A stretch of DNA of 64,000 nt from Puniceicoccales bacterium (GTDB lineage Bacteria > Verrucomicrobiota > Verrucomicrobiia > Opitutales > UBA9783), in the NCBI GenBank assembly GCA_031258545.1, contig JAIRMU010000019.1:70219-134218 (forward strand). The letters are read 5' to 3'. A program made the position numbers and the translations under genes. Shown one piece after another: positions 6,449 through 47,820 of the stretch. Within the stretch, counting starts at the first letter, position 1; each line of letters begins with the position of its first letter. A model generated the notes under the pieces. That model made no database searches and was not told where the DNA came from. It worked only from the letters and a program-made list of their open reading frames with translations.

Positions 6449-7639
6449 TTAAGCAATAACTTCAACAATACGTCCTGCACCGATGGTCCTTCCACCTTCA
6501 CGCATGGCAAAACGCTGTCCTTTTTCCATAGCAACCGATTTTTGTAATTCGATTTCAATGGATAAATTGTCTCCCGGCATAACCATTTCAACTCCCTCTG
6601 GCAAAGAACAAACACCCGTTACATCGGCTGTGCCAAAGAAAAATTGAGGGCGATATCCCTTAAAGAAAGGTGTATGACGACCTCCCTCATCTTTCGTTAA
6701 AACATAAATTTCTGCTTTTGCCTTCGTATGCGGCGTAATAGATCCCGGCTTCGCCAAAACTTGACCCCGTTCGACATCCTTCTTTTCAATACCTCTCAAC
6801 AGAACACCCACGTTGTCGCCCGCTTGCCCACGATCCAGCAACTTATGAAACATTTCAACACCGGTACACGTTGTACTATGCGTTGGACGTAATCCTACAA
6901 TTTCCACCGTATCGCCTACTTTAACGCTACCACGTTCAATGCGGCCCGTCACAACGGTACCTCTTCCCGTAATGCTAAAAACGTCTTCCATGGACATTAG
7001 AAAAGGCTTCTCCAGGTCGTGCTGTGGCTCGGGAATATCTTTGTCAACCGCCTCCAGCAAACGACTAATGGAATCTACGCCTTCGGGTTTTCCCTCCAGG
7101 GCACCCAAAGCAGATCCGCGAATAATGGTAATATCATCGCCTTTGTATTCATATTTGTTCAAAAGATCCCGAATTTCCATCTCCACCAATTCAAGCAGCT
7201 CCGGATCATCCACAAGATCTACTTTATTGAGAAAAACAACCAAATTAGGTACGCCCACCTGACGTGCCAACAAAATGTGTTCACGGGTTTGGGGCATGGG
7301 ACCATCGTAGGCACTCACCACCAAAATAGCACCATCCATCTGCGCGGCCCCCGTAATCATATTCTTCACGAAATCCGCATGTCCCGGACAATCGACGTGG
7401 GCATAGTGACGAACTGTCGTTTCATATTCAACATGCGCAACGGCAATTGTAACAATTTTTGAAGCATCGCGAACGGTACCTCCTTTTGCGATTTCTGCAT
7501 AAGACTTACATTCCGCCAATCCTTTGTCCGATTGCACTTTAAGAATAGCCGTTGTGAGCGTTGTTTTACCATGGTCCACGTGACCAATTGTTCCCACGTT
7601 AACATGTGGTTTTGTTCTTGCGAAGGTTTCTTTAGCCAT
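6449..7639 (-). CDS. tuf: Elongation factor Tu
   Basis: [26 protein letters not shown], full-length 396 aa. Confidence 0.98.
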
Positions 7640-7674
7640 ACAAAAAAATTGAGTTTAAGATAAACTTTGGTTGA

Positions 7675-7750
<76 letters not shown>

Positions 7751-7956
7751 AACTTCTCATCCACTTTTGGCCTTTAACCAAAATACTGTGAAGATTAAAC
7801 TTTTGATGCCTAATTGCAAACAGTCAACCTTTTATTTTAAAAAATATTAAAAAAATAAGGATAATAGGTTTTTGATCGCCATCGCATGCGTCTATGAAAC
7901 TTAAAAAATGCTTGCAGCGCCACTTATTTTTAATCATTCAACCTACGCTACATTCT

Positions 7957-9078
7957 TTAAAATACTTTCACGGCATTTCCCAAACAATGTAACTGCAACT
8001 TAATTTCGGCAAACTTATTTCTATAGTGTCGGCCTTTTGCTCCGCACATCACTTTTGACAAGATCCAATATCTACCATAGTTAAAATAACTTACACGCGT
8101 AAAAAGATTCTTTTTAGGTAGATACAATTGCGTCTTATAAAAGGGTATGTTGCCTTTTTCTATGACGGCAACTAAAAATTGTTCTAAACTTTTTTCATTA
8201 TTTAGCATCGTTTCCTCTTTGACGATAGGTTCACGAAGCATGGCAAGATACTTTGCATCATCTTGATCAAGTTCCATCACTTTCTGCATCACCGTATCCA
8301 AATTGTCGTATTCATGACAATTAATAAAGGCCTTTGTATTTAGCAATGTTCCTACGCTTGGATTTCCCCAATAAATTGGAATAGAATTTGCCATAAAAGG
8401 ATGTACCAGTTTTTCGGTTACGTAGCCTTCACTCGAAGCATTTTCAAAGGCAATTGTAAATTTGTAATCTTTGATAAAAGCCACCTTACTTTCCCATGCA
8501 TTACCGCCTCCTCGGGGAACAATGGTCTGTTGCATGTTATTTAAGACACGCCCAGGACAATCCACTTTCTTGTAACGCATTAATTTTTTGGCAAAATCCT
8601 GCCTTAAAATGGCTCCGTTGCCTTTGGAAGCATTGCAGTATATGAAATTACAAAACTTTCGCTGTAGGCACTTTTGATCCACCTGCAAACGCACACGTTC
8701 ACAAGATTTAAAATTTAGAATGTCCGAATTATATTGAAAATGGCGCGATCCAAAGTGAATGGGATGGCACGTAATGGCATAATCGCATTCGTTAAAATTG
8801 GGCATAACATTCTCCGCCGTGTAAAATATTTTAACGCAATTTGCATACTGCCTAAAAGCATCTCCCCAGCACGAGTAAAACAAAAAATCAGCGTTTGGAC
8901 CTATCTCGACGTGGTAATACTTTTCCAACATGGAAACAAACTTTTGCCCTTGAATATCCGATGTCCCTGCTGGGTCCACACAAAAATCGGCAAAAGCAAT
9001 TCTTATCGTCCGCTTTTCAGCAGGCAGGACAAACGTCACCGCAAAAGAGATGACAACCAACCAAGCAACACGATTCAA
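7957..9078 (-). CDS. Glycosyltransferase family 10 (alpha-1,3/4-fucosyltransferase-like)
   Basis: DYKFTIAFENASSEGYVTEKLVHPFMANSIPIYWG matches the GT10 FucT motif (YxFxLxFENSxxxxYxTEK...P(I/V)(Y/V)xG, as in H. pylori FutA/B). N-terminal hydrophobic anchor MNRVAWLVVISFAVTFVLPA. Visibly AT-rich. Confidence 0.75.
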   Translation of the reverse strand: MNRVAWLVVISFAVTFVLPAEKRTIRIAFADFCVDPAGTSDIQGQKFVSMLEKYYHVEIGPNADFLFYSCWGDAFRQYANCVKIFYTAENVMPNFNECDYAITCHPIHFGSRHFQYNSDILNFKSCERVRLQVDQKCLQRKFCNFIYCNASKGNGAILRQDFAKKLMRYKKVDCPGRVLNNMQQTIVPRGGGNAWESKVAFIKDYKFTIAFENASSEGYVTEKLVHPFMANSIPIYWGNPSVGTLLNTKAFINCHEYDNLDTVMQKVMELDQDDAKYLAMLREPIVKEETMLNNEKSLEQFLVAVIEKGNIPFYKTQLYLPKKNLFTRVSYFNYGRYWILSKVMCGAKGRHYRNKFAEIKLQLHCLGNAVKVF

Positions 9079-9117
9079 AATGTAACTCCTTCAATCTCTA
9101 CAAATATTATACAATAC

Positions 9118-9201
9118 TGGTGCTTGAAAAGGGACTCGAACCCTTACACCTTGCGGCACTAGATCCTAAGTCTAGCGTGTCTACCATTCCACCATTCAAG
9201 C
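9118..9201 (-). tRNA. tRNA-Leu (anticodon UAG)
   Basis: Reverse complement GCTTGAATGGTGGAATGGTAGACACGCTAGACTTAGGATCTAGTGCCGCAAGGTGTAAGGGTTCGAGTCCCTTTTCAAGCACCA. Acceptor GCTTGAA/TTCAAGC, anticodon stem CTAGA/TCTAG with loop CUUAGGA, long variable arm, encoded CCA. Confidence 0.87.
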
Positions 9202-9249
9202 AAAAATACATATTTATTGCCACCTCCATAACCCGTACACGCTGCATCA

Positions 9250-10857
9250 TCATCCAAGAAGGTTTTTCGTCTTTATGCAAGCCTGCACAAAAGATTTAAA
9301 TAAAGGGTGTGCCGCATGCGGTTTAGATTGAAATTCCGGATGATATTGTACACCCACAAACCACGGATGTCTTTCCAATTCAACGGCCTCAACAACGTCC
9401 AAATTACGGCACGTGCCAGCAATTTTCAATCCTTTTTCGGTCCAAAGATTGCACAATTGCTTATTGACTTCGTAACGGTGGCGGTGTCGTTCAAAAATAG
9501 TATTGGCTTGATAAACACTTTCCAATAAGGAATGGGGAACTATATTACATTCCAGCATACCCAAACGCATGGATGCCCCCTTATGCATGTTGCCTTTTTG
9601 TTCTTCCATAAGACCAATAACGGGGGTCGTGGCCTGCGCATCAAATTCGGTACTGGTTGCATCCGACAAGTTGACAACGTGACGTGTAAACTCAATCACG
9701 GCCAGTTGCATACCCAAACAAATACCTAAAAAAGGCATGCCCTGCTCTCGAGCGTGACGAATTGCCATTATTTTCCCTTCAATACCTCTTATGCCAAAAC
9801 CTCCGGGAACTAAAATACCATCCAGATCATTTAACCCATTATCCGCCCAATGCTGCTCCAACCACTCCGCATCTATAGGTTTTACTTCGACGGTACATTC
9901 ATTGGCAATACCCGCGTGAAATAAAGCTTCATAAATAGATTTATAGGCATCTCTTAAGTCAACGTATTTGCCCACAACACCTATTTTTACATGGCACTTG
10001 GGAGCACAAATCCTACCCATAATGGTTCTCCACGTATTCAAATTGGATGGACGATAAGGCATGCCAAAATGCGCTAAAACCAATTGATCTAACTTTTCTT
10101 CATGCAAAGAAAGAGGTAGCTCGTAAATGGAGCTTTCAACATCTTTTTCTTCAATCACTGACTCCACCGAAACATTGCAAAACAAACTTAACTTCTGGCG
10201 GATAGATTTTTCAAGCGGTCTTTCGGTCCTACAAACCAAAATATCCGGCTGAATGCCAATTTCACGTAATTTGGCAACACTCTGCTGAGAAGGTTTTGTC
10301 TTCAATTCCGAAGAAGCTTTTAAAAATGGGATTAAGGTAACGTGCAAAAACAACACGTTGTTTTTTCCAAAATCTAGGGCTAATTGCCTCAACGCCTCCA
10401 GAAAAGGCAAACCTTCGATATCTCCAACCACGCCTCCAATTTCGGTAATTAAAATGTCCGTATCATCGTTGGCTCCCGACAAAATACGCGCTTTAATTTC
10501 ATCCGTAACGTGCGGAATGACTTGCACCGTATTGCCCAAATATTGGCCTTGCCGTTCTTTTTTAAGTACACTTGCGTAAATTTGACCCGAAGAAACGCTG
10601 TGTTTTTTGGACAAGGCAACGTTGGTAAAACGTTCGTAATGCCCCAAATCCAAATCGGTTTCCGCCCCATCTTTTAAAACGTACACTTCTCCGTGTTGGA
10701 ATGGACTCATGGTGCCCGGATCTACGTTCAGATAAGGATCAAATTTTTGTAACCCTATGCGTAATCCTTGTTCCTCCAACAGGGCTCCCAAGGATGCTGC
10801 CGTTAGACCTTTCCCCAACGACGAAACAACGCCACCCGTCACAAAAACTAATTTCAT
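9250..10857 (-). CDS. pyrG: CTP synthase
   Basis: MKLVFVTGGVVSSLGKGLTAASLGALLE...; C-terminal glutamine amidotransferase GICLGMQ...HRHRYEVN. The track ORF begins 11 codons upstream (10890); homology favours MKLVFVTGG. Confidence 0.95.
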   Translation of the reverse strand: MKLVFVTGGVVSSLGKGLTAASLGALLEEQGLRIGLQKFDPYLNVDPGTMSPFQHGEVYVLKDGAETDLDLGHYERFTNVALSKKHSVSSGQIYASVLKKERQGQYLGNTVQVIPHVTDEIKARILSGANDDTDILITEIGGVVGDIEGLPFLEALRQLALDFGKNNVLFLHVTLIPFLKASSELKTKPSQQSVAKLREIGIQPDILVCRTERPLEKSIRQKLSLFCNVSVESVIEEKDVESSIYELPLSLHEEKLDQLVLAHFGMPYRPSNLNTWRTIMGRICAPKCHVKIGVVGKYVDLRDAYKSIYEALFHAGIANECTVEVKPIDAEWLEQHWADNGLNDLDGILVPGGFGIRGIEGKIMAIRHAREQGMPFLGICLGMQLAVIEFTRHVVNLSDATSTEFDAQATTPVIGLMEEQKGNMHKGASMRLGMLECNIVPHSLLESVYQANTIFERHRHRYEVNKQLCNLWTEKGLKIAGTCRNLDVVEAVELERHPWFVGVQYHPEFQSKPHAAHPLFKSFVQACIKTKNLLG

Positions 10858-11045
10858 CGGCCTATGCATACAATAATTTGAATCAAACATAAAACTCTAA
10901 TAACATCAAGTATGTATCCTCAAATTCATCAAAAGGCTCTTTGTTGCAGTGCCTAATCTCTCCAAAGCACGAATCATTTTCCTCATGCGGCATGCGTTAC
11001 TTAATTTTGATTTGTAAAACAAAAAACCTAAAGTAGAATAAATGC

Positions 11046-11677: not shown

Positions 11678-12451
11678 TTATAAGACGTCGTGCGGATTTT
11701 CAAAACCCATTTTATGACAAGACTTATGGACAAATGGTAAAGAATGCCGAGCGCCTGTTTGTCGGTTAGCAGTATTTACGAAAAAGCCTCCCATTCTCTC
11801 GGATGTGGCAACATCGCCACCCTTACTCTTTGCCATATTGATGCACATAATTAGAGCGTTCTCATAATCATCCATCGATCCGTATAAATTAAGCCAACCA
11901 AGATATTCATATCCTTTCTCACTCACGACTACTTTTGCCTTAGGATCATCTGATATATCATCATTGAAATTCTGAACACAACATAGCGATTGTACGGGAT
12001 TGAATTGTGGACAAATAGAAAAATCTTTCGGATCTATCCCGTTAATAGTTGCCCAGCCCTCTGTTGGCTCACCTTGCTTGATAGCCAAAGCACCTTCCGC
12101 TGATATGGTAACAGCTCCACCTTTGGCTCCTATGGCACAATTTAGTAAATTTAAAATAACCTCAAAATCATCTGCCGATCCATGTAAATCAAGCCAATGT
12201 AAATATTGAAAAACCCCCACGTATACTTCTCCTCCTTTGTCCCACTCAATCGGTTGATACATTGGGCAATGCGAAAGTACATGTGTTCTACCACACTCAG
12301 GACAATATCTTGTACCGTTCTTGGGGCAACAAAAACTGGGATCGTCTGGATGTTCCTCGTTACAAACCTTACAATGCCAAGCATTTAAGTTTACGGTTCC
12401 CATCATGAAACCCACTGTTGCTATTGTTTGAATCACATTTTTCATATTCAT
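11678..12451 (-). CDS. Hypothetical secreted protein: signal peptide, Cys-rich zinc-ribbon-like segment and an internally duplicated domain
   Basis: N-terminal MNMKNVIQTIATVGFMMGTVNLNA. CKVCNEEHPDDPSFCCPKNGTRYCPECGRTHVLSHCP. Two related ~40-aa units (FQYLHWLDLHGSADDFEVILNLLNCAIGAKGGAVTIS / YEYLGWLNLYGSMDDYENALIMCINMAKSKGGDVATS). No family recognised. Confidence 0.6.
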   Translation of the reverse strand: MNMKNVIQTIATVGFMMGTVNLNAWHCKVCNEEHPDDPSFCCPKNGTRYCPECGRTHVLSHCPMYQPIEWDKGGEVYVGVFQYLHWLDLHGSADDFEVILNLLNCAIGAKGGAVTISAEGALAIKQGEPTEGWATINGIDPKDFSICPQFNPVQSLCCVQNFNDDISDDPKAKVVVSEKGYEYLGWLNLYGSMDDYENALIMCINMAKSKGGDVATSERMGGFFVNTANRQTGARHSLPFVHKSCHKMGFENPHDVL

Positions 12452-12695: not shown

Positions 12696-14480
12696 ATGAT
12701 TGCTAATTTGCATTTCCGTCGCATCCGCCTAAAATTTAACCCAACGTTACAAAAAAAACAACAAGGCAGTTTAATACTAAGTGTTATGCTGTTAAGTACA
12801 CTTGGTGCCCTCGTATTCATCTACACCCACAAACAAAATTCTCTGTACAGACAATGGAAATTCAGAATACGTACACTCCAAGCAGAAAAATTAGCCTTGT
12901 GGACCTGCCATCACGCGCTTAAGAAATTGTCGAAAAGGGCTACCGTTGATACCCTGGCCACATACGATGATGAAAATTCATCCCTGCCCATCGTCCAATT
13001 TTATGACACGTTGAATGGTAACCGCCTAAAACCCATCGTATCCAAAGGTGAATCATCCATTCGGGTCAATATCGATAAAAGTAAACACCATCCCCTAACG
13101 TTACCCCTGGAACAAAAAACAAACAACATTGCAGTGGCTTACGGCGTAATTGAAGGCAACCTTCTCAAAAATTATACCAACAAAATCCCAATTTGTAATG
13201 CAAAACAGGGAGGCTTACGTGAACTTTTTGGTGAAGCAATTCACAAATCACCTCCCAAGAATTTTCCAGGCCCAGAAGCATTATGGAATAAAAACCGTCA
13301 AAGATTTCTAAATCTCGAAGATATCCATCAACCCTTAAGCACCATGAATGGATTTCTCCCCGTTTTACTTCGTTCTAATTTAACACTGACTGAACAAGAA
13401 ATCACCGTAAAAAACCTCTGGTGGAACCCCTATGATCGGGCTTTGGAGGGCACAATGGATTTTCGAATTACACTTGTAATCAACTCAGAGAGTGGACATG
13501 CCTCCATCCATCGTACATGTAATCAAACCATACACATAAAACCTGGAGATGTGCGTCGGAATGATATCACTTATCCGACTACCGAGCTCCAGGATAAAAA
13601 AAATATTTTTCTCAATAACCTACAGATTCAAACGGGTACCTCACATCATTCATGCACGTATCACATGGATCATATTCCGTGTGATTGCTTACCAAAAACG
13701 CTTATAATATCTTTAAATATCGATGCGCACTGCGATTTCCACGCCATTAACTTATGGCCATCCCACAATGAGATTCCTACCACAGCACCTTCTGGCAAAC
13801 GGCCTGGATGGAAAAAATCTAAACCATCGGCACCTCGGGTGCAGTCAACATCTTTGTGGGTATCGGACGAAACTAAAGACTTTTCTTTTTTATCAAAACA
13901 AACACCCTATTTGACCCAAACTCCTTTTCAACGTATGCAAGCTTGCTTTTTAAAAGAGGAACAAATACCGTACGCCTGCATCGGCTGGCCAAATTCAGCG
14001 AAAACACATCGCATCAGGGCTTACAATCAATTTTTCTGGGATTATTTCTATTGTGATCATGTCATGCCACTCCTGAACGTAAACACCGTATCTGACGACT
14101 GGGCCATGCACTTCGAAAATGTTTTTAAATCACTAGGATGTGCGCACAATACCGCAGACTTAGAACATTTCATAAAAAAATTGCAGGGGCAGGTTATAAA
14201 AAATAGACCTTTTTTATCCGTAGAACAATTTATTCAATCGGGTATTTTGCAGACAACACTCGATGAAATAGATGCATTTAAAAAAGTTCGCCAAAGCGAT
14301 GTACTCTCTTATCTAAAAAATCCTTTGGCGGTCCGCTCCGAATGCTTTGTCATCATTGGCACTGCCGTTGTAAAACATGATGGCGAAACTGTTCAAAAAA
14401 CCTGCAAAATGCTTGTCCACCGCGAAGCTTCAGACGCGACAAAACGTCTATGGGTAGTCGATGGTATTACATGGCTGTAA
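12696..14480 (+). CDS. Hypothetical membrane-anchored protein, weakly GspK (T2SS minor pseudopilin)-like
   Basis: Pseudopilin-like N-terminus KKQQGSLILSVMLLSTLGALVFIY, LNVNTVSDDW (cf. GspK xNxNTA), C-terminal ...RPFLSVEQFIQSGIL...LAVRSECFVIIGTAVV. Resemblance is by eye only. Confidence 0.4.
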   Translation: MIANLHFRRIRLKFNPTLQKKQQGSLILSVMLLSTLGALVFIYTHKQNSLYRQWKFRIRTLQAEKLALWTCHHALKKLSKRATVDTLATYDDENSSLPIVQFYDTLNGNRLKPIVSKGESSIRVNIDKSKHHPLTLPLEQKTNNIAVAYGVIEGNLLKNYTNKIPICNAKQGGLRELFGEAIHKSPPKNFPGPEALWNKNRQRFLNLEDIHQPLSTMNGFLPVLLRSNLTLTEQEITVKNLWWNPYDRALEGTMDFRITLVINSESGHASIHRTCNQTIHIKPGDVRRNDITYPTTELQDKKNIFLNNLQIQTGTSHHSCTYHMDHIPCDCLPKTLIISLNIDAHCDFHAINLWPSHNEIPTTAPSGKRPGWKKSKPSAPRVQSTSLWVSDETKDFSFLSKQTPYLTQTPFQRMQACFLKEEQIPYACIGWPNSAKTHRIRAYNQFFWDYFYCDHVMPLLNVNTVSDDWAMHFENVFKSLGCAHNTADLEHFIKKLQGQVIKNRPFLSVEQFIQSGILQTTLDEIDAFKKVRQSDVLSYLKNPLAVRSECFVIIGTAVVKHDGETVQKTCKMLVHREASDATKRLWVVDGITWL

Positions 14481-41182: not shown

Positions 41183-42070
41183 ATGAGTACACCAGATATT
41201 AATAGTCTGCAAAGTTACGGTAATGGTACCTATAACGTAGCATTTGACGCCAAAAATGACGCGAAAGATGGGACTTATACGGTCACAAAGGCGGGCGATT
41301 CCTATACGATCAGTAAGGATGGAGTTGCGCAAGTTTCAACCGGTAATTTTAGCGAGGTAAGCAGTTTTTTTGCAGAGGGAGAGGTGTCGAGTATTTCAAC
41401 ACCGAAAACACCCGTTACAAGTCCCGCCAGTAAAATTATCACGGACGATGATATTCGCGCTCTAATGAATTTGCTATTGAAGGCCTTTACATTGATGATC
41501 AATGCACAACGTCAAGGGGATCTCAATGACATGCAGGGGGTACTCAACGCCTTAAATACAAAATTGGAAGCCATGGAAGAATCCAAAGACGCCGCCTATA
41601 ATGCGGCCGTAAAGCAGGCGGTCGGCCAGATGGTATCCGGTGCATTTACGATTGTGGGCGGTTGTTTTCAGGCTGGGGGAGCAATGAAGGGAACAGTTAA
41701 AACTGGTGGTGAGCCTATCCCAGTAAATGATGCAACTGGGAATGGTGGACAGGTTGCTGGAGTCACGCCTGAGGTAACAGAAGACTTTGGGGCAGTAGGT
41801 GCAGGATGGTCAGGAGTTTCCCAAGGATGCGGGACAATGTCACAGGCGGCATGTAGCCTTGATGCTGCATCGGACACCAAAGAACAGCAGGAGGCCGAAA
41901 TCGACAAGGAGCGGGCCAATTCGCAATTGGAATTCTGGAAACAGGGAGAATCAATGGACGAAAAATCCATGGATTCCTTCTTCAACTTTTTGAAAACAAT
42001 TCTCGCCATGTTGCAGGAATACAGGCAAAACGCCGCCAATACGGAGCAAAGCATTGCCCGGATGTCCTAA
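41183..42070 (+). CDS. Hypothetical protein with T3SS translocator-like (SctB/YopD/EspB-class) architecture
   Basis: 295 aa, no Sec signal, Ser/Thr-rich N-terminus. Coiled-coil segments flank one Gly/Ala-rich hydrophobic segment (AVGQMVSGAFTIVGGCFQAGGAM). Amphipathic C-terminus (SFFNFLKTILAMLQEYRQNAANTEQSIARM). Adjacent to the T3SS operon. Architecture only, no motif match. Confidence 0.35.
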   Translation: MSTPDINSLQSYGNGTYNVAFDAKNDAKDGTYTVTKAGDSYTISKDGVAQVSTGNFSEVSSFFAEGEVSSISTPKTPVTSPASKIITDDDIRALMNLLLKAFTLMINAQRQGDLNDMQGVLNALNTKLEAMEESKDAAYNAAVKQAVGQMVSGAFTIVGGCFQAGGAMKGTVKTGGEPIPVNDATGNGGQVAGVTPEVTEDFGAVGAGWSGVSQGCGTMSQAACSLDAASDTKEQQEAEIDKERANSQLEFWKQGESMDEKSMDSFFNFLKTILAMLQEYRQNAANTEQSIARMS

Positions 42071-42110: not shown

Positions 42111-42345
42111 TGCGGGGGATCGTTTTGGAGGAAAATGTCTAGCGGTTTTTACGGGACATCAAAAAGCCTGAAGCCGACGCCATAAACACCGCATCAGCCT
42201 AGACACCGGCCCCTCCCTTCGGAGCAACCCTTACCTTCCCCGGTGGGGTTCCAAAATGTGTTCCAATTCCTGAGATTTTACCGCCAAGAGTACCAACAGC
42301 GGGTGCTGGGTTTCTCCTCTGAGGGCAATCATTTCCAGCAGCTTA
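42111..42345 (+). repeat. Direct repeat copy 1 (3' end of the Cys-cluster gene plus its downstream region)
   Basis: GGGGGATCGTTTTGGAGGAAAATGTCTAGCGGTTTTTACGGGACATC...CCGCCAAGAGTACCAACAGCGGGTGCTGGGTTTCTCCTCTGAGGGCAATCATTTCCAGCAGCTTA recurs at 43661-43892 (about four-fifths identical by eye). Confidence 0.85.
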
Positions 42346-43400
42346 CTCTTGAGGCGAAGGAGCTCTATCTGATACCAACCCAAGGGATGAATGGGTGTAC
42401 TCGGCAAACTATCCCTATCGACATATCTATAAATCGGATTGTGCCAGTGTATGAGCGTACTTGTGAGGAACACGTTAATGGGGTCCTCCTCTCTCCTGGG
42501 TACTTGCATGACGTTGAGGAACCAGGTGTGAAACCGATCCCTGACGTTGTCAAAATCGTATTGGGCAAAACCCGTTTGAAAGAGATGCCCGCAATCAATG
42601 CCGACGTAACAGCGGTACAGGTTGACGGTGCGCAAAAATGTTTCGAAATTGATCTGGGCTGCGTTTCTTGGATCGCAGGCATCCATGAGCATTTCCGCGA
42701 TGGGTCGCACAAAATACCTCTGCAGGGTATTGGCCACCTCCCGCAGCGAAGAGGCGCGAAATGTATCGTAGAGGTATTGCACTATCTCGTCCCCCATTTC
42801 CGCCTTAAAATAAAATTTGGCCGTATCTTTCTTGGGCCACCACTCCGTACAAGCCCAGATACCACACGTACCAATAAACATCATGGTGTTAAAGCAACAA
42901 CCAAGATCATATTCGTTAGAGGAACAATCGCAGCAGCAGGCCTTCCAGGCGGGTGCACCGCAGTAGCAGCACTTCTTAATTTCAGCCCTTTGTTCAGCAT
43001 TTAAAAAACTCTCGTAACCAAAATCCTTAAAGTTTCTGGAAAGCCACACCCCAGGTTGGCGGCAAAATTTATTGGCTTTCCAACATCCCAAGAAAAATGG
43101 ATAAACCCGGACGTTCCCTCGCAGGAGAAATGAGGTATCCGCCCAACCTTGCGTACCACCTTCAAACCCGAGTAGACCGCCGCCGCCGTGTTCTGCGTAA
43201 ATGTTACCCATGTCCTCCGTCCATTTGTCGAATAGGCGGATGTAGTTTGCGGCCACTTGGGGATCGCTGGAATTGGCTTGAAAAGCCTGAAAAGCCCGGT
43301 TCAAATCTCTAAACCTATCCGCCCGAAGAAGAGGCGTATGCCATAACATGGCATGCGTAAGCGCCAATGCGCCTAGGAGTACCAATTTTTTTCTCATCAT
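42231..43400 (-). CDS. Hypothetical secreted protein with a dense cysteine cluster
   Basis: Signal-like MMRKKLVLLGALALTHAMLW. 11 Cys within 41 residues (CCYCGAPAWKACCCDCSSNEYDLGCCFNTMMFIGTCGIWAC, 42849-42971). 389 aa. Preferred over the 253-aa antisense ORF. Confidence 0.7.
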   Translation of the reverse strand: MMRKKLVLLGALALTHAMLWHTPLLRADRFRDLNRAFQAFQANSSDPQVAANYIRLFDKWTEDMGNIYAEHGGGGLLGFEGGTQGWADTSFLLRGNVRVYPFFLGCWKANKFCRQPGVWLSRNFKDFGYESFLNAEQRAEIKKCCYCGAPAWKACCCDCSSNEYDLGCCFNTMMFIGTCGIWACTEWWPKKDTAKFYFKAEMGDEIVQYLYDTFRASSLREVANTLQRYFVRPIAEMLMDACDPRNAAQINFETFLRTVNLYRCYVGIDCGHLFQTGFAQYDFDNVRDRFHTWFLNVMQVPRREEDPINVFLTSTLIHWHNPIYRYVDRDSLPSTPIHPLGWYQIELLRLKSKLLEMIALRGETQHPLLVLLAVKSQELEHILEPHRGR

Positions 43401-44052: not shown

Positions 44053-44081
44053 TTTACATCGGTTTATTTCCTCATTATAGT
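44053..44081 (+). promoter_or_regulatory. Candidate sigma-70-type promoter of the T3SS operon
   Basis: TTTACA (44053-44058) - 17 nt - TATAGT (44076-44081). It would give a very short leader before ATG 44093, so it is uncertain. Confidence 0.25.
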
Positions 44082-44092
44082 TGATATGTCTC

Positions 44093-45604
44093 ATGGACTC
44101 GCAAGAAACCAGCCAAGCCGAAAACCAAGGGCCAGACAATGCCGTAACACAAGGGCCGGATGTCGCAACGACGGATAATGCCGCAACAAATGATGCCGCA
44201 ATCGACAACGCTGCACCCGACAATGCCGCCTCAACACCCGCAGGTCAGCTTGTTTTGCGCGTATTGTCCGGACCTCACAGCGGCGCAGAAATTGATCTGC
44301 AGGAAACCGCCATCGTTATTGGTAAAGAGGCCGCCTGCGACGTGGTCCTCATCGACCCAGCGCTCAACGATCAACACATCAAAGTATTCCTAAAAGATAG
44401 CAAAATCAACCTGGAAGTCCTCAATGAGTCTCACGTGATCGTGGATGGGGCCCGCGTAACGGGTACCACCGTGCTCCAAAGATTTCAAGCGGTTGTCATC
44501 GGCTCAACGCTGCTATCCATGGGCCCCAACAACGTTACCTGGCCCACCATCTCCGCCGACCAAAAACCCACACAAGAAACACCCGCAACACCCCAAAACG
44601 AATCGACGCCACAACAAGAGATACCCCCCGCTACACCCCCACCCAACGAACCCCCAGTCGTCGATAATACCCATAAAATAAAAATTAAAAAGTATATCAT
44701 CGCCGGAAGCTTAGCCTTACCCGTACTGCTGATCTTCATCGCAAGCTTATTTTCTCCAAAAGAATCCTCCGAATCCAATGAACCCAACAAACCTACATCC
44801 AAGTTATCCACCTATAACAAAACTGCCATTCTCAACATTTTGCAAAAAAACAATATCGACCCCCATAATATCATCCTAGAAGATAAGCAAAATGTGTACG
44901 ATTTGACCGTTTACGTCGAAACCAATATTCACAAACAAAATCTACAAAAAGCATTATCCCCCATACCTTTCAAAAAATTACGCATTTATTCGCAGGAAAA
45001 TTTACTTATTCAAGCCCGGGAAGTGCTAAAAAAATTCAAAACCATTTCCGCTTCAAAAGCAGTCGAACTCAATTCCATCGCACTTCAAGGCTACCTGCAC
45101 GCCATTGACAACCTGCCGAATATTAAAAATCAACTTTTCTCGGACATTGTCGGCCTAAAATCTATTCAAACGGCCATACTTAGTCCCGATGAAGTTTACG
45201 ATATGGCATCAAACTTGCTTACACAGTACGGATTAATGGGACTTCTAAACATACAAACCATCGAATCTGGAATTCTCGTATCCGGCAGTATTCCTACGAA
45301 AAACGAACCCATGTGGAAAGATGCCCATAAAGCCCTTAAAAACATTTTTAGCGGCACCTGCCAAATTCTTACACACGTTGCCGTATTGCCACCGCAATCC
45401 GTAAAACGCTCTTTCTTCAAATCACCCATTGCTTCCGTCTCCATTCCAAAAGATGGTGTTCCGTGGATTGATCTCCAAAACGGAGAACGCTACTTTGAAG
45501 GAACCACTTTACCTTCGAGCTACGTCATTCAATCCATCACGCCGAGTGGCATTATTCTTAACAAAAACGAAGAATCCATCAATTTCACCCTCAACGAACT
45601 ATAA
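44093..45604 (+). CDS. sctD: T3SS inner-membrane ring protein SctD (YscD/CdsD/PrgH class) with N-terminal FHA domain
   Basis: FHA-like LVLRVLSGPHSGAEIDLQETAIVIGKEAACDVVLIDPALNDQHIKVF...VIVDGARV. Pro/Thr linker, single TM YIIAGSLALPVLLIFIASLF, ~270-aa periplasmic part. Track ORF starts at TTG 44081; first ATG is 44093. Confidence 0.8.
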   Translation: MDSQETSQAENQGPDNAVTQGPDVATTDNAATNDAAIDNAAPDNAASTPAGQLVLRVLSGPHSGAEIDLQETAIVIGKEAACDVVLIDPALNDQHIKVFLKDSKINLEVLNESHVIVDGARVTGTTVLQRFQAVVIGSTLLSMGPNNVTWPTISADQKPTQETPATPQNESTPQQEIPPATPPPNEPPVVDNTHKIKIKKYIIAGSLALPVLLIFIASLFSPKESSESNEPNKPTSKLSTYNKTAILNILQKNNIDPHNIILEDKQNVYDLTVYVETNIHKQNLQKALSPIPFKKLRIYSQENLLIQAREVLKKFKTISASKAVELNSIALQGYLHAIDNLPNIKNQLFSDIVGLKSIQTAILSPDEVYDMASNLLTQYGLMGLLNIQTIESGILVSGSIPTKNEPMWKDAHKALKNIFSGTCQILTHVAVLPPQSVKRSFFKSPIASVSIPKDGVPWIDLQNGERYFEGTTLPSSYVIQSITPSGIILNKNEESINFTLNEL

Positions 45605-45607
45605 TCC

Positions 45608-45823
45608 ATGAATCAAAGTCAAAAAATTATTCTTGTGGAAATGGAAACCCAACTCAAGCAAGATACAACAGGAACCTTCCGCAGGAAATTACGCGATCAG
45701 TTGGCCCAATACAAGCAACTTATCAACCAATTGATGCCTTCGGCGCCAGATAAAACACATTTCGATACACTCGAAAGCCTAAAAATGGCATTGCAACACG
45801 CAGAAACAATCGTAACCCACTAA
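45608..45823 (+). CDS. Small helical protein in the position of SctE (YscE/PscE/CdsE needle co-chaperone)
   Basis: 71 aa, predicted helical, located between sctD and sctF. Assignment rests on size and synteny only. Confidence 0.45.
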   Translation: MNQSQKIILVEMETQLKQDTTGTFRRKLRDQLAQYKQLINQLMPSAPDKTHFDTLESLKMALQHAETIVTH

Positions 45824-45827
45824 TATC

Positions 45828-46148
45828 ATGACAGCAGATCCAACAAAAGTAGACGCTAATGCAGATCCTTACGCATTTACAAAACAAGCTACTCTTTGGG
45901 ACCAAACCAAAGTTACAACTATTGATAGAACCGCCAGTAGTATCGTCGGCCTCGTTGCCAAAGGCGAAACGCAGATGAACGCACTCCTTTCAGAACTGGC
46001 AAGCATAGACCCTGGGCAACTTGACCAAAGTCGTCTCATGGCTGCACAAATGACCATGACACGTTGGCAACTAGCTTCACAATTGCTAACCAATTTCCAA
46101 TCAGGTGTCGCAACAGGACTTAAAAACGTGATCCAAAACATTCGTTGA
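45828..46148 (+). CDS. sctF: T3SS needle filament protein SctF
   Basis: C-terminus ...MTRWQLASQLLTNFQSGVATGLKNVIQNIR resembles needle subunits (PrgI/MxiH end ...IDAAIIQNFR). Small helical-hairpin protein; 106 aa, long for the family. Confidence 0.75.
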   Translation: MTADPTKVDANADPYAFTKQATLWDQTKVTTIDRTASSIVGLVAKGETQMNALLSELASIDPGQLDQSRLMAAQMTMTRWQLASQLLTNFQSGVATGLKNVIQNIR

Positions 46149-46156
46149 TTTTAATC

Positions 46157-46615
46157 ATGAATAACTTCTTACAACAAATTCCCAATGAACTTCTACAGTT
46201 GCTTGCCGAAATCGGATACGTGGGCGCCAATAATGGCTTTTTTAAAGAATCGCAAGCTATCTTTGATGCCATCGTTAAAGCACGTCCAGATAGCTTGGAT
46301 GCGCTGCTCGCCCAGGGCATTGGACACATATTTTCAGGCCAAATTGCCAATGGATCCAAAATTTTATTTAGAGTATTGGAAAAAAATCCAGAAAATGAAT
46401 TGGCCAAAAGCTTTCTGGCGGTTGCATTTAAAATGACCAACGTCGACCCGCACGCCGTAGCCGCCGCCGAATCCGTTGTCAAGTATGGAGAAAATCCATC
46501 TGCCAAACAATTGGCACAGGCTATCCTGGACACTTACCAAAAAGAACTTTCTCCCATGGATTTGCAAACCCAACAGGCCAGTCAGTTTTCTAAAACATCC
46601 AACGTACCGTCATGA
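46157..46615 (+). CDS. TPR-like T3SS chaperone in the position of SctG (YscG/PscG/CdsG); could alternatively be a class II translocator chaperone
   Basis: TPR-like repeats (FFKESQAIFDAIVKARPDSLDALLAQGIGHIFSGQIANGSKILFRVLEKNPENELAKSFLAVAF). ATG 46157 lies inside the track ORF that starts at TTG 46145. ATGA overlap with the next gene. Confidence 0.5.
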   Translation: MNNFLQQIPNELLQLLAEIGYVGANNGFFKESQAIFDAIVKARPDSLDALLAQGIGHIFSGQIANGSKILFRVLEKNPENELAKSFLAVAFKMTNVDPHAVAAAESVVKYGENPSAKQLAQAILDTYQKELSPMDLQTQQASQFSKTSNVPS

Positions 46616-47040
46616 GCATCGAAGGCAATACACTGAGTACCATCCAGAAGCAACAAGCCGTCGAGTCCGACATACAAGCTTCGCTCGACATACGCCCGGA
46701 TAATCCAGTTGTAACAAATTTGGACATACCCGAAACTCCTCTGGATGCATTGAATAACCTGCCTCCCACTTTAACGCCGCAACCTACTGCATTTGAAAAC
46801 CGGGCCCCGGGTGACGAAATTCTTCTGGCTCTACAACGCGTCTCCGATAGTCAAGGTGCCAATACAAAAGGCATTCAAGACACCCTCAGCCAAATAAGTA
46901 GTGAAAATGGTCCCATTACCATCGCAGATACGCTCAAATTGCAAAAACTATTGGTGGATTATCAATTAACGCAGGATTTAATATCGAAAGGGGCCGACAA
47001 AATTAGCCAGGGCGCACAAGCGCTTTTCAGAAACCAATAA
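46612..47040 (+). CDS. sctI: T3SS inner rod protein SctI (YscI/PrgJ-like)
   Basis: C-terminus ...TLKLQKLLVDYQLTQDLISKGADKISQGAQALFRNQ resembles inner-rod C-termini. Position immediately upstream of sctJ. Confidence 0.55.
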   Translation: MSIEGNTLSTIQKQQAVESDIQASLDIRPDNPVVTNLDIPETPLDALNNLPPTLTPQPTAFENRAPGDEILLALQRVSDSQGANTKGIQDTLSQISSENGPITIADTLKLQKLLVDYQLTQDLISKGADKISQGAQALFRNQ

Positions 47041-47044
47041 GCGT

Positions 47045-47803
47045 ATGAATTGGAAATCCAGTTTTTCTCTCGTAGCATTGTTTATTTGTGGGTGTAGTCA
47101 ACAAGCCCTGTACACGGGACTGCCAGAAAAGGATGCCAACGATATGGTTGCTATTTTGCTATCCAATCAAGTCAATTGCGATAAAGTCTCGGGAGTGGAA
47201 GGTACCTGGAATATTGTGGTCGATAAAAACCAATTTACGGAAGCCGTCAGCCTACTCAACGAAGTAGGTTATCCTAAAGACAAATTTAGTTCCCTGGGAG
47301 ACGTATTTAAAAAGTCGGGCCTCGTATCCTCACCGCTTGAAGAAAGGGCCCGCTTTATGCATGCCCTATCGGAACAATTGGCCGAAACTTTAACGCACAT
47401 CCACGGTATTGTAACGGCACGTGTTCACATCGTCCTTCCCGACAACGACCCCTATTCGGCCAAAATATTACCCTCATCCGCCTCCGTTTTCATCTCTTAT
47501 CTACCTCAGGTGAATCTAGACGACTGTGTCCGCGACATACGTCAGCTGATAACCAACAGCATCGAAGGTCTTACGTACGATAAAGTCAACGTCGTATTGT
47601 TCCCAGCAACCAATCCCAAAGAACGCTTACCACTCAATTTGTCCACTCAAAAAAATTCGTATACAACCGTTCTTTCCATGAAAATCGCCAAAGATTCCGT
47701 GCTTAAGTTTTGGTTTTTCCTTGGTACTCTTTCCGTAAGCGTGATAGTCATTCTCGGTGGCACAATCTTCTTCCTGAAACAAAAACAATCCTCTCAAAGT
47801 TAA
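47045..47803 (+). CDS. sctJ: T3SS inner-membrane ring lipoprotein SctJ (YscJ/PrgK/EscJ)
   Basis: Lipobox LFICGC, LYTGLPEKDANDMVAILLSNQV, GDVFKKSGLVSSPLEERARF, GIVTARVHIVLP, NSIEGLTYDKVNVVLFP, C-terminal TM. Confidence 0.9.
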   Translation: MNWKSSFSLVALFICGCSQQALYTGLPEKDANDMVAILLSNQVNCDKVSGVEGTWNIVVDKNQFTEAVSLLNEVGYPKDKFSSLGDVFKKSGLVSSPLEERARFMHALSEQLAETLTHIHGIVTARVHIVLPDNDPYSAKILPSSASVFISYLPQVNLDDCVRDIRQLITNSIEGLTYDKVNVVLFPATNPKERLPLNLSTQKNSYTTVLSMKIAKDSVLKFWFFLGTLSVSVIVILGGTIFFLKQKQSSQS

Positions 47804-47820
47804 CGCATGCTCAATTCCCT

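Follow-up and report, generated by a model that had tools for sequence, protein, structure and literature searches.

A probably ancient, bacterial-type GT10 fucosyltransferase gene between two tRNA genes upstream of tuf in termite-gut Puniceicoccales, with repeated decay in sister genomes

The stretch of DNA analysed here, referred to as the window, comprises 64,000 nt of contig JAIRMU010000019.1 of a Puniceicoccales bacterium, and the gene under study is an open reading frame (ORF) of 373 codons with a TTG start, at 7957-9078 on the minus strand, that lies between the genes for tRNA-Leu(UAG) and tRNA-Thr(GGU) upstream of tuf. From the evidence presented below, we consider it probable (roughly 0.7) that this ORF encodes an anciently acquired and still functional fucosyltransferase of family GT10, of the bacterial type, with an accessory role in surface-glycan decoration. 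It is proposed that a single gene of approx. 1.16 kb was transferred horizontally into the tRNA-Leu/tRNA-Thr spacer, in the stem of a small termite-gut clade of Puniceicoccales/Opitutales and after its split from the lineage of L004, a related human-gut genome; afterwards the gene would have descended vertically, adopted the codon usage of its host, and been expressed, probably, by read-through from the pyrG/tRNA-Leu transcript. Three features take this locus beyond routine annotation: the empty and occupied versions of the same site, three independent pseudogenisations, and a hydrophobic N-terminus specific to this lineage.

The assignment to GT10 is supported by sequence and structural comparisons. 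The two Pfam models of this type of enzyme were matched well above their cutoffs, FucT_N (PF18025) at residues 38-116 (76.7 bits, cutoff 27.2, E 2e-21) and Glyco_transf_10 (PF00852) at residues 151-279 (69.5 bits, cutoff 23.9, E 3.8e-19), and the motif DYKFTIAFENASSEGYVTEKLVHPFMANSIPIYWG, which an earlier reading made from the letters alone (the sequence-only reading) had quoted as the fucosyltransferase signature, occupies residues 204-238; no NCBIfam model matches the protein. The closest solved structure in a sequence search is the α1,3-fucosyltransferase of Helicobacter pylori (HpFucT; PDB 2NZW, E 1.8e-26), and the plant and human GT10 structures match less well (E 1e-6 to 1e-9). A structure predicted with AlphaFold2 from 25 homologues reached a mean predicted local distance difference test score of 82.2; in a Foldseek search its top matches were all H. 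pylori FucT (the first being 2nzw_A, E 5.6e-21, with template modelling (TM) scores of 0.61/0.65), followed by plant and human GT10 proteins with TM scores of approx. 0.5. Residues 195-283 align without gaps to residues 222-310 of HpFucT, with N213, Y219, E222 and K223 in the positions of N240, Y246, E249 and K250, and E89 aligns to E95; R159 presumably corresponds to R195, as judged from the family alignment and the role of R195. Five of the residues (E89, R159, N213, E222 and K223) do not vary among the 25 aligned sequences, and Y219 varies hardly at all (at least 90%). According to a review that cites the crystal structure, Glu95 of HpFucT is likely the catalytic base and Glu249 stabilises an oxocarbenium-like intermediate, and mutants in either residue are almost without activity (PMC4202792). 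Since the catalytic residues are conserved and the modelled fold matches, the protein appears to have everything expected of an active bacterial-type GT10; it would be an inverting GT-B enzyme using GDP-β-L-fucose, in which Glu89 is the predicted catalytic base and Glu222/Lys223 would belong to the donor site.

An exhaustive phmmer search against a library of 1.84 billion cluster representatives (50% identity) returned 9526 matches at E ≤ 1e-3 and 771 at E ≤ 1e-30; the ORF adds one more member to a bacterial family that is already known and very large. These numbers, together with HpFucT as the best structural match, contradict the statement of the sequence-only reading that GT10 enzymes are mainly eukaryotic; a bacterial GT10 need not signal eukaryotic mimicry, given how many members of this family public genomes and metagenomes contain. 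The best 120 word-indexed matches share 41-56% identity with the protein and come from public genomes and metagenomes; the few source names found among them are Gastranaerophilaceae, Alphaproteobacteria/Pseudomonadota and Lachnospiraceae.

The insertion was recognised by comparison with an empty site. Using NusG as a probe, 80 tuf/nusG neighbourhoods were collected from Opitutia species representatives and scanned for GT10, tuf and pyrG. GT10 is present in none of the 80, and pyrG adjoins tuf in only one, that of L004, a human-gut Verrucomicrobia metagenome-assembled genome (MAG) whose tuf, nusG and pyrG are 94%, 78% and 72% identical to those of the window, and which also shares the upstream rpiB and the gene for a 594-residue protein. 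In L004 the order is pyrG, tRNA-Leu(tag), 203 bp, tRNA-Thr(ggt) and tuf, with nothing between the tRNA genes. In the window the two boundaries of the slot, tRNA-Leu upstream (9118-9201, minus strand; ARAGORN, and Rfam tRNA with 61.5 bits) and tRNA-Thr downstream (7675-7750, minus strand; ARAGORN, and Rfam with 67 bits), are 1367 bp apart. The occupied site is longer by 1164 nt, which the 1122-nt ORF with its leader and Shine-Dalgarno sequence essentially accounts for; this is a single-gene insertion of approx. 1.16 kb.

The limits of this insertion were examined by aligning both flanks of the ORF to the L004 spacer. On the 3' side there is an AT-rich spacer of 206 nt (7751-7956, minus strand, GC content 0.316); its tRNA-Thr-proximal 130 nt are 75% identical to the L004 spacer and include a conserved TTGACT block, in what is a probable promoter region of tRNA-Thr/tuf, and the first 75 nt or so after the stop codon align no better than shuffled sequence. 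On the 5' side, the 39-nt leader between tRNA-Leu and the ORF (9079-9117, minus strand) matches the first 39 nt of the L004 spacer weakly (27/44 versus 51 ± 5% for shuffled sequence). Homology with the empty site is thus demonstrable only for the tRNA-Thr-proximal 130 nt, and the exact ends of the insertion are undefined by the alignment; the 203-bp spacer of L004 carries no remnant of the GT10 coding sequence. As for the junction itself, tRNA-Thr precedes tuf in three of the four other Opitutia loci scanned for tRNAs, and in three relatives with a pyrG of 68-70% identity this gene does not lie beside tuf; these three genomes are uninformative for the slot, and because pyrG is absent beside their tuf the pyrG-tuf junction is taken as a shared derived feature of L004 and the window clade. 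The junction predates GT10, and the gene was therefore inserted into a pre-existing pyrG-tRNA-Leu-tRNA-Thr-tuf arrangement; the simplest reading is a gain on the stem of the clade.

The age of this gain was estimated from six sister genomes, all of which have the slot occupied. The window belongs to LBF43, a Puniceicoccales bacterium MAG whose protein MDR0647537.1 (LBF43_03840) has the same sequence as the GT10 of the window and whose pyrG is also a 100% match; the gene is intact here and in LBD69 and LBJ78, and broken in LBB19, LBE99 and LBH52. The Shine-Dalgarno sequence and the TTG start are conserved in all six. Among the three intact copies the synonymous divergence (dS, Nei-Gojobori) is 0.40-0.58, compared with 0.38-0.50 for pyrG and 0.37-0.58 for tuf; as the dS of GT10 equals that of its flanking genes and six of six slots are occupied, the gene was already in the clade ancestor and has been vertically inherited since. 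The ratio of nonsynonymous to synonymous divergence (dN/dS) is 0.09-0.18 for the same copies, with 0.08-0.10 for pyrG and 0.11-0.13 for rpiB, which indicates purifying selection on GT10 where it is intact.

The composition of the gene is in line with an old transfer. Its GC content of 0.388, against a mean of 0.436 for the 45 other ORFs of the window (z = -1.4), is the third lowest of the 46, and to this extent the description of the insert as more AT-rich than its flanks was correct; however, neither the GC content at third codon positions (0.388 versus 0.427, z = -0.8) nor the codon usage (z = +0.4, from a log-likelihood trained on the other window genes) is unusual. The visible dip in GC content is mostly due to a protein rich in N, K, F, Y and I and to the downstream spacer of 31.6% GC. 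The transfer is old and the composition of the gene has ameliorated, with native codon usage. The sequence-only reading had set vertical conservation with native composition against horizontal acquisition; such conservation is found within the clade (6/6) and not across the wider group.

Decay of the gene in three of the six lineages could not be seen from the window sequence alone. In LBB19 codon 115 changed from CAA to TAA (Q115 to stop); in LBE99 the codon of the invariant R140 changed from CGA to TGA and one nucleotide was deleted; and LBH52 has two deletions, of 5 and 294 nt, and an insertion of 17 nt. An assembly error as the source of the LBB19 stop was ruled out by an independent per-run (Logan) assembly, where the region carrying the lesion is identical over 1475/1475 nt. 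When six flanking genes are concatenated for a tree, the window lineage is the first to diverge and broken copies group with intact ones, LBE99 with LBJ78 (148/200 replicates) and LBH52 with LBD69 (187/200); because broken and intact copies interleave in this way, at least three independent inactivations have occurred. Phase variation as known from H. pylori was considered and rejected: the longest homopolymer in the ORF is 6 nt and the copies were broken by nonsense substitutions and by large indels, so the split genes represent decay. It might then be asked if the window copy is itself a functionless relic on its way to loss, with an open frame that is only a matter of time, as could be thought from three pseudogenes among six sister copies and from a gene orphaned from any glycan or GDP-fucose cluster. 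This is very unlikely, since the frame is open over 373 codons with all catalytic residues kept, the Shine-Dalgarno sequence and start codon are conserved, and dN/dS is 0.09-0.18 at a dS of 0.4-0.58 among the intact copies, similar to pyrG and rpiB.

The origin of the gene outside this lineage was suggested by its homologues. Identity of the GT10 proteins is 85-90% within the clade and falls to about 53% for the nearest homologues outside it, and besides the clade's own cluster no protein with a Verrucomicrobia name appears among the best 120. Together with the empty site in a relative, and with nearest outside homologues that, where named, are from other phyla, this points to a foreign origin. 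In a neighbour-joining tree of the catalytic core with 122 sequences, the clade occupies a long branch, at approx. 53% identity to its nearest neighbours, and its only recurrent sister is P0082 (19/30 bootstraps), a 373-residue protein encoded on a 3.7-kb contig (L089). The tree failed to identify a donor, given the long branch and a support of 19/30 for P0082. The gene for P0082 is directly followed by one for GDP-mannose 4,6-dehydratase (L089, 2336-3481, next to P0082), and the neighbourhood of a GT10 gene and this dehydratase is the usual context of a fucose or polysaccharide cluster; it is probable that the window gene was lifted out of a polysaccharide cluster.

A vector for the transfer was also sought. 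No integrase was found around the ORF, nor an att-like repeat of the tRNA end, the best flanking repeat being 27 nt at 70% identity in AT-rich DNA. Searches with tblastn gave nothing above 27% identity in 72,556 plasmids and nothing above 33% in 50,697 phages, and the best matches in IMG/VR (34%) and in JGI metagenome contigs (43%) revealed neither a carrier nor additional members of the clade. A tRNA-associated integrative island was discarded in view of the missing integrase and att repeats and the presence of one ORF only. Of the scenario proposed in the sequence-only reading, the horizontal acquisition is upheld by the empty site of L004 and the approx. 53% identity to outside proteins, with the correction that it was not recent but ancestral to the sampled clade; the idea of tRNA genes as integration points finds no mobile-element signature that would tie them to the insertion.

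These data also bear on a vertical ancestry of GT10, in which the gene would have been present in the common ancestor with L004 or deeper in the Opitutales, between the tRNA genes or elsewhere, and lost in the other lineages. Native codon usage and a dS equal to that of the neighbours would be expected from it, the three independent inactivations show that the gene is prone to loss, and only one outgroup has the pyrG-tuf junction. On the other hand, GT10 is found in 0 of 79 other Opitutia tuf loci, the 203-bp spacer of L004 holds no remnant of it, the best 120 homologues include no other Verrucomicrobia-named protein and identity drops straight to about 53%; moreover, the gene would still need to have entered the tRNA-Leu/tRNA-Thr spacer once the pyrG-tuf junction existed. 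A vertical ancestry is for these reasons unlikely.

Three regions can be distinguished in the protein: a hydrophobic, clade-specific segment (residues 1-21), the GT-B catalytic core (residues 22 to 320, approximately) and a basic helical tail (residues 323-373). The N-terminal segment MNRVAWLVVISFAVTFVLPAE holds a 15-residue hydrophobic run (residues 4-18, Kyte-Doolittle 2.66), and other homologues start only at 'KKTIKI.F.DF', the equivalent of residues 22-32 of the window protein. Among 138 full-length homologues the segment is confined to the window clade, with one marginal exception that looks like a mis-called start. Codons 1-21 of the window and LBD69 differ by seven synonymous and no nonsynonymous changes, and the replacements seen in other lineages of the clade preserve hydrophobicity (V/I, A/V, V/F), a pattern indicating that the segment is translated and under purifying selection; in one MAG, the start called by the Prokaryotic Genome Annotation Pipeline (PGAP) is a GTG at codon 14, giving 360 residues, at a site without a Shine-Dalgarno sequence. 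In the model the last 51 residues form helices; they are strongly basic (10 K+R, 1 D+E), and the motif 'RY(W/L)(I/L)LSK..G' found there also occurs in 360-residue proteins of Gastranaerophilaceae type. An Eisenberg hydrophobic-moment scan did not flag this tail as strongly amphipathic, so it is described here as basic and helical only.

From these features, we infer a double attachment: the hydrophobic N-terminus and the basic helices of the C-terminus would both hold the enzyme to the inner membrane on its cytoplasmic side, which is also where GDP-fucose and lipid-linked acceptors occur. The membrane anchor put forward in the sequence-only reading is real as a hydrophobic run. By analogy with FutA/FutB of H. 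pylori, the enzyme may add α1,3- or α1,4-linked fucose to a lipid-linked surface glycan, such as the O-chain of lipopolysaccharide (LPS) or lipooligosaccharide, or a capsule, and by the same analogy a mimicry of host glycans would be plausible. The fucosylated surface would be an accessory trait of host interaction, dispensable in some hosts; it is proposed that GT10 has been lost recurrently because the trait is dispensable and the lineage is apparently under reductive evolution.

The host context of the clade is indicated by its accessions. The whole-genome shotgun prefixes of the sister MAGs (JAIRKR, JAIRSW, JAISBA and JAITJL) fall within the range JAIRJQ-JAITXW, which comprises 1,723 termite-gut MAGs of BioProject PRJNA732531 (PMC11257099), and for this reason the clade is considered to be formed by termite-gut MAGs. 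The small-genome, low-GC Opitutales of lower termites (LL51, UBA9783) form a large clade of putative endosymbionts of gut flagellates (PMC11257099), and the lineage studied here appears to be undergoing genome reduction of the symbiont type. At 44081-53993 on the plus strand, the window carries a cluster for a non-flagellar type III secretion system (T3SS) of the injectisome kind, recognised with Pfam (SctD/YscD, SctI, SctJ, SctK, SctL, SctN ATPase, SctO, SctP/HpaP, SctQ and SctR); this complete-looking cluster suggests direct contact with a eukaryotic host cell. The window also carries genes for LPS export (LptF/G) and for sugar modification, and it encodes a DegT aminotransferase and a hexapeptide acyltransferase.

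In this context a host-directed enzyme has to be weighed, whose N-terminus would be an export signal or a type II signal anchor of eukaryotic style and which, exported by Sec, vesicles or a T3SS, would fucosylate glycans of the protist host or the gut with GDP-fucose of the host. Such a role would fit a hydrophobic segment that is exclusive to the clade among the 138 full-length homologues and under purifying selection, a complete injectisome cluster at 44-54 kb, some 35 kb from GT10, the lack of GDP-fucose genes nearby in the window, and a termite-gut lineage with related Opitutales that are putative intracellular symbionts. Nevertheless, the catalytic core and basic tail match those of cytoplasmic, membrane-associated bacterial fucosyltransferases, and the gene is unlinked to the T3SS cluster; furthermore, to our knowledge a strongly hydrophobic N-terminus is atypical of T3SS substrates, and we know of no fucosyltransferase effector. 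We regard this role as highly improbable, and the secreted or host-acting function raised in the sequence-only reading has no direct support. Its most specific form, in which a T3SS-bearing protist symbiont exports a GT10 that has gained a eukaryote-like signal anchor and acts on protist glycans with host GDP-fucose, is likewise highly improbable; if it were true, the exported enzyme would be the first fucosyltransferase effector known to us, and its repeated loss would track changes of host or lifestyle.

Several observations weigh against the proposal of an acquired, still functional enzyme of surface-glycan decoration acting in the cytoplasm. The 64-kb window contains no gmd/fcl or fkp for the synthesis of GDP-fucose, and no other glycan-assembly genes are present beside GT10 or elsewhere in the window, so that the gene stands isolated whereas its nearest relative, P0082, adjoins a GDP-mannose dehydratase. 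The charges that flank the 15-residue hydrophobic run are balanced, and the N-terminus may be a cleaved signal peptide, in which case the enzyme would be located where GDP-fucose should be lacking. With respect to the acquisition, bootstrap values are weak for any sister and the near homologues are mostly metagenome proteins; with one outgroup available, GT10 may also have been gained earlier and cleanly lost in L004.

If the enzyme does fucosylate the cell surface, the locus would mark a host-interaction trait that was tested and discarded during the reduction of a symbiont genome, and a comparison of the hosts of lineages that kept the gene with those of lineages that lost it could reveal the purpose of the trait. 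Regardless of function, the locus is a clean worked example in which empty and occupied sites, relative age, purifying selection and three inactivations can be followed among six genomes. Of all features of this GT10, the hydrophobic N-terminus confined to the clade is the one that could open something new.

The genes around the insertion are arranged on the minus strand in the order pyrG, tRNA-Leu, GT10, tRNA-Thr, tuf, tRNA-Trp, secE, nusG, rplK and rplA. The conserved upstream neighbour, placed by synteny, is the CTP synthase gene pyrG (9250-10890, minus strand; Pfam CTP_synth_N and GATase), and tuf, encoding EF-Tu, is at 6449-7639 on the same strand (Pfam GTP_EFTU, D2 and D3; 94-98% identity in relatives). 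ARAGORN and Rfam agree that both tRNA genes share the strand of the GT10 ORF and tuf, just as the sequence-only reading had placed them, and this ORF is the only one between them; the interval 7751-9249 marked in that reading takes in tRNA-Leu and both spacers besides the ORF. A GAAGGAG Shine-Dalgarno sequence in the leader is located 7 nt 5' of the TTG start. Predictions of promoters and terminators around the ORF called no separate promoter and no terminator; without a promoter of its own, the ORF is likely to be transcribed together with tRNA-Leu/pyrG.

Some additional observations concern this neighbourhood. At 7579-7713 on the plus strand there is a weak Rfam match to HPnc0260, an antisense RNA of H. 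pylori, below the gathering score (40.7 bits versus 59, E 0.024); it overlaps the 5' end of tuf and tRNA-Thr on the opposite strand, and is most likely a by-product of the conserved tuf/tRNA sequence. Opitutia-like tuf/nusG loci (tuf 76-79% and nusG 55-61% identical) occur in L010 and L076, entries titled Zhongshania aliphaticivorans and Acidobacteria; these are probably contigs mis-binned in those MAGs. The 594-residue protein encoded upstream is the fastest-evolving neighbour, with 75% identity in the sister genomes, a dN/dS of approx. 0.27 and 34% identity in L004. Between its gene and rpiB there is a 257-codon ORF (11678-12451, minus strand) without a Pfam match, whose product has a Cys-rich N-terminal part with CxxC pairs; a gene of similar size (251-277 residues, likened by size and position) is found in the sister loci L086, L087 and L088, no gene is called at this position in L002/LBD69, and the position appears to be variable within the clade.

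Elsewhere in the window, a gene for a 595-residue ABC transporter with fused permease and ATPase (27077-28864, minus strand) has a GC content of 32.6% (29.2% at third codon positions), by far the lowest in the window (mean 43.6%); it is a stronger outlier than GT10 and may have been acquired more recently. Several sizeable ORFs of 295-779 codons without a Pfam family, the gene for the 594-residue protein among them, are located at 12696-14480 (plus), 19393-21732 (minus), 41183-42070 (plus), 42231-43400 (minus) and 60034-61905 (plus).

When compared with known systems, the insertion resembles tRNA-targeted genomic islands in that the foreign DNA starts within approx. 5-40 nt of the 3' end of a tRNA gene; in contrast with these islands, it carries neither an integrase nor further cargo, and the tRNA 3' end does not recur as a direct repeat. 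The eukaryotic GT10 enzymes (human FUT9, 8D0O; plant FUT11/FucTA, 9S6A; mango FUT13, 7YRO) belong to the same CAZy family and share the C-terminal nucleotide-binding motif, and they are superficially like the window protein in having a hydrophobic segment between a short N-terminus and the catalytic domain; however, the similarity is limited to E values of 1e-6 to 1e-9, TM scores of approx. 0.5 and 13-18% identity, and the window protein groups with bacterial sequences, so that nothing points to a transfer from a eukaryote to a bacterium. The mostly uncharacterised GT10 proteins from public genomes and metagenomes are 45-54% identical to it over the whole catalytic core and share the invariant motifs RKFCNF, VDCPG, YKFTIAFEN, TEK and IPIYWG; these relatives lack the hydrophobic N-terminus of the window clade and start directly at 'KKTIKI.F.DF'.

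The closest characterised counterparts are FutA/FutB/FucT of H. pylori (CAZy GT10; 2NZW, 2NZX, 2NZY and 5ZOI), with approx. 25% identity in the structural alignment. Unlike these proteins, the window GT10 has no DDLRxNY heptad repeats in the C-terminal region of the alignment, its gene has no poly-C or other long homopolymer and hence no slipped-strand phase variation, and it has an extra hydrophobic N-terminus; its gene, moreover, is a lone one beside tuf, with a tRNA gene on either side. Both, on the other hand, combine FucT_N and Glyco_transf_10 in a GT-B fold, have in common the equivalents of E95 (E89), E249-K250 (E222-K223) and N240/Y246, and end in a basic helical tail without the stem region of the eukaryotic enzymes; the role presumed for both is the decoration of surface glycans.

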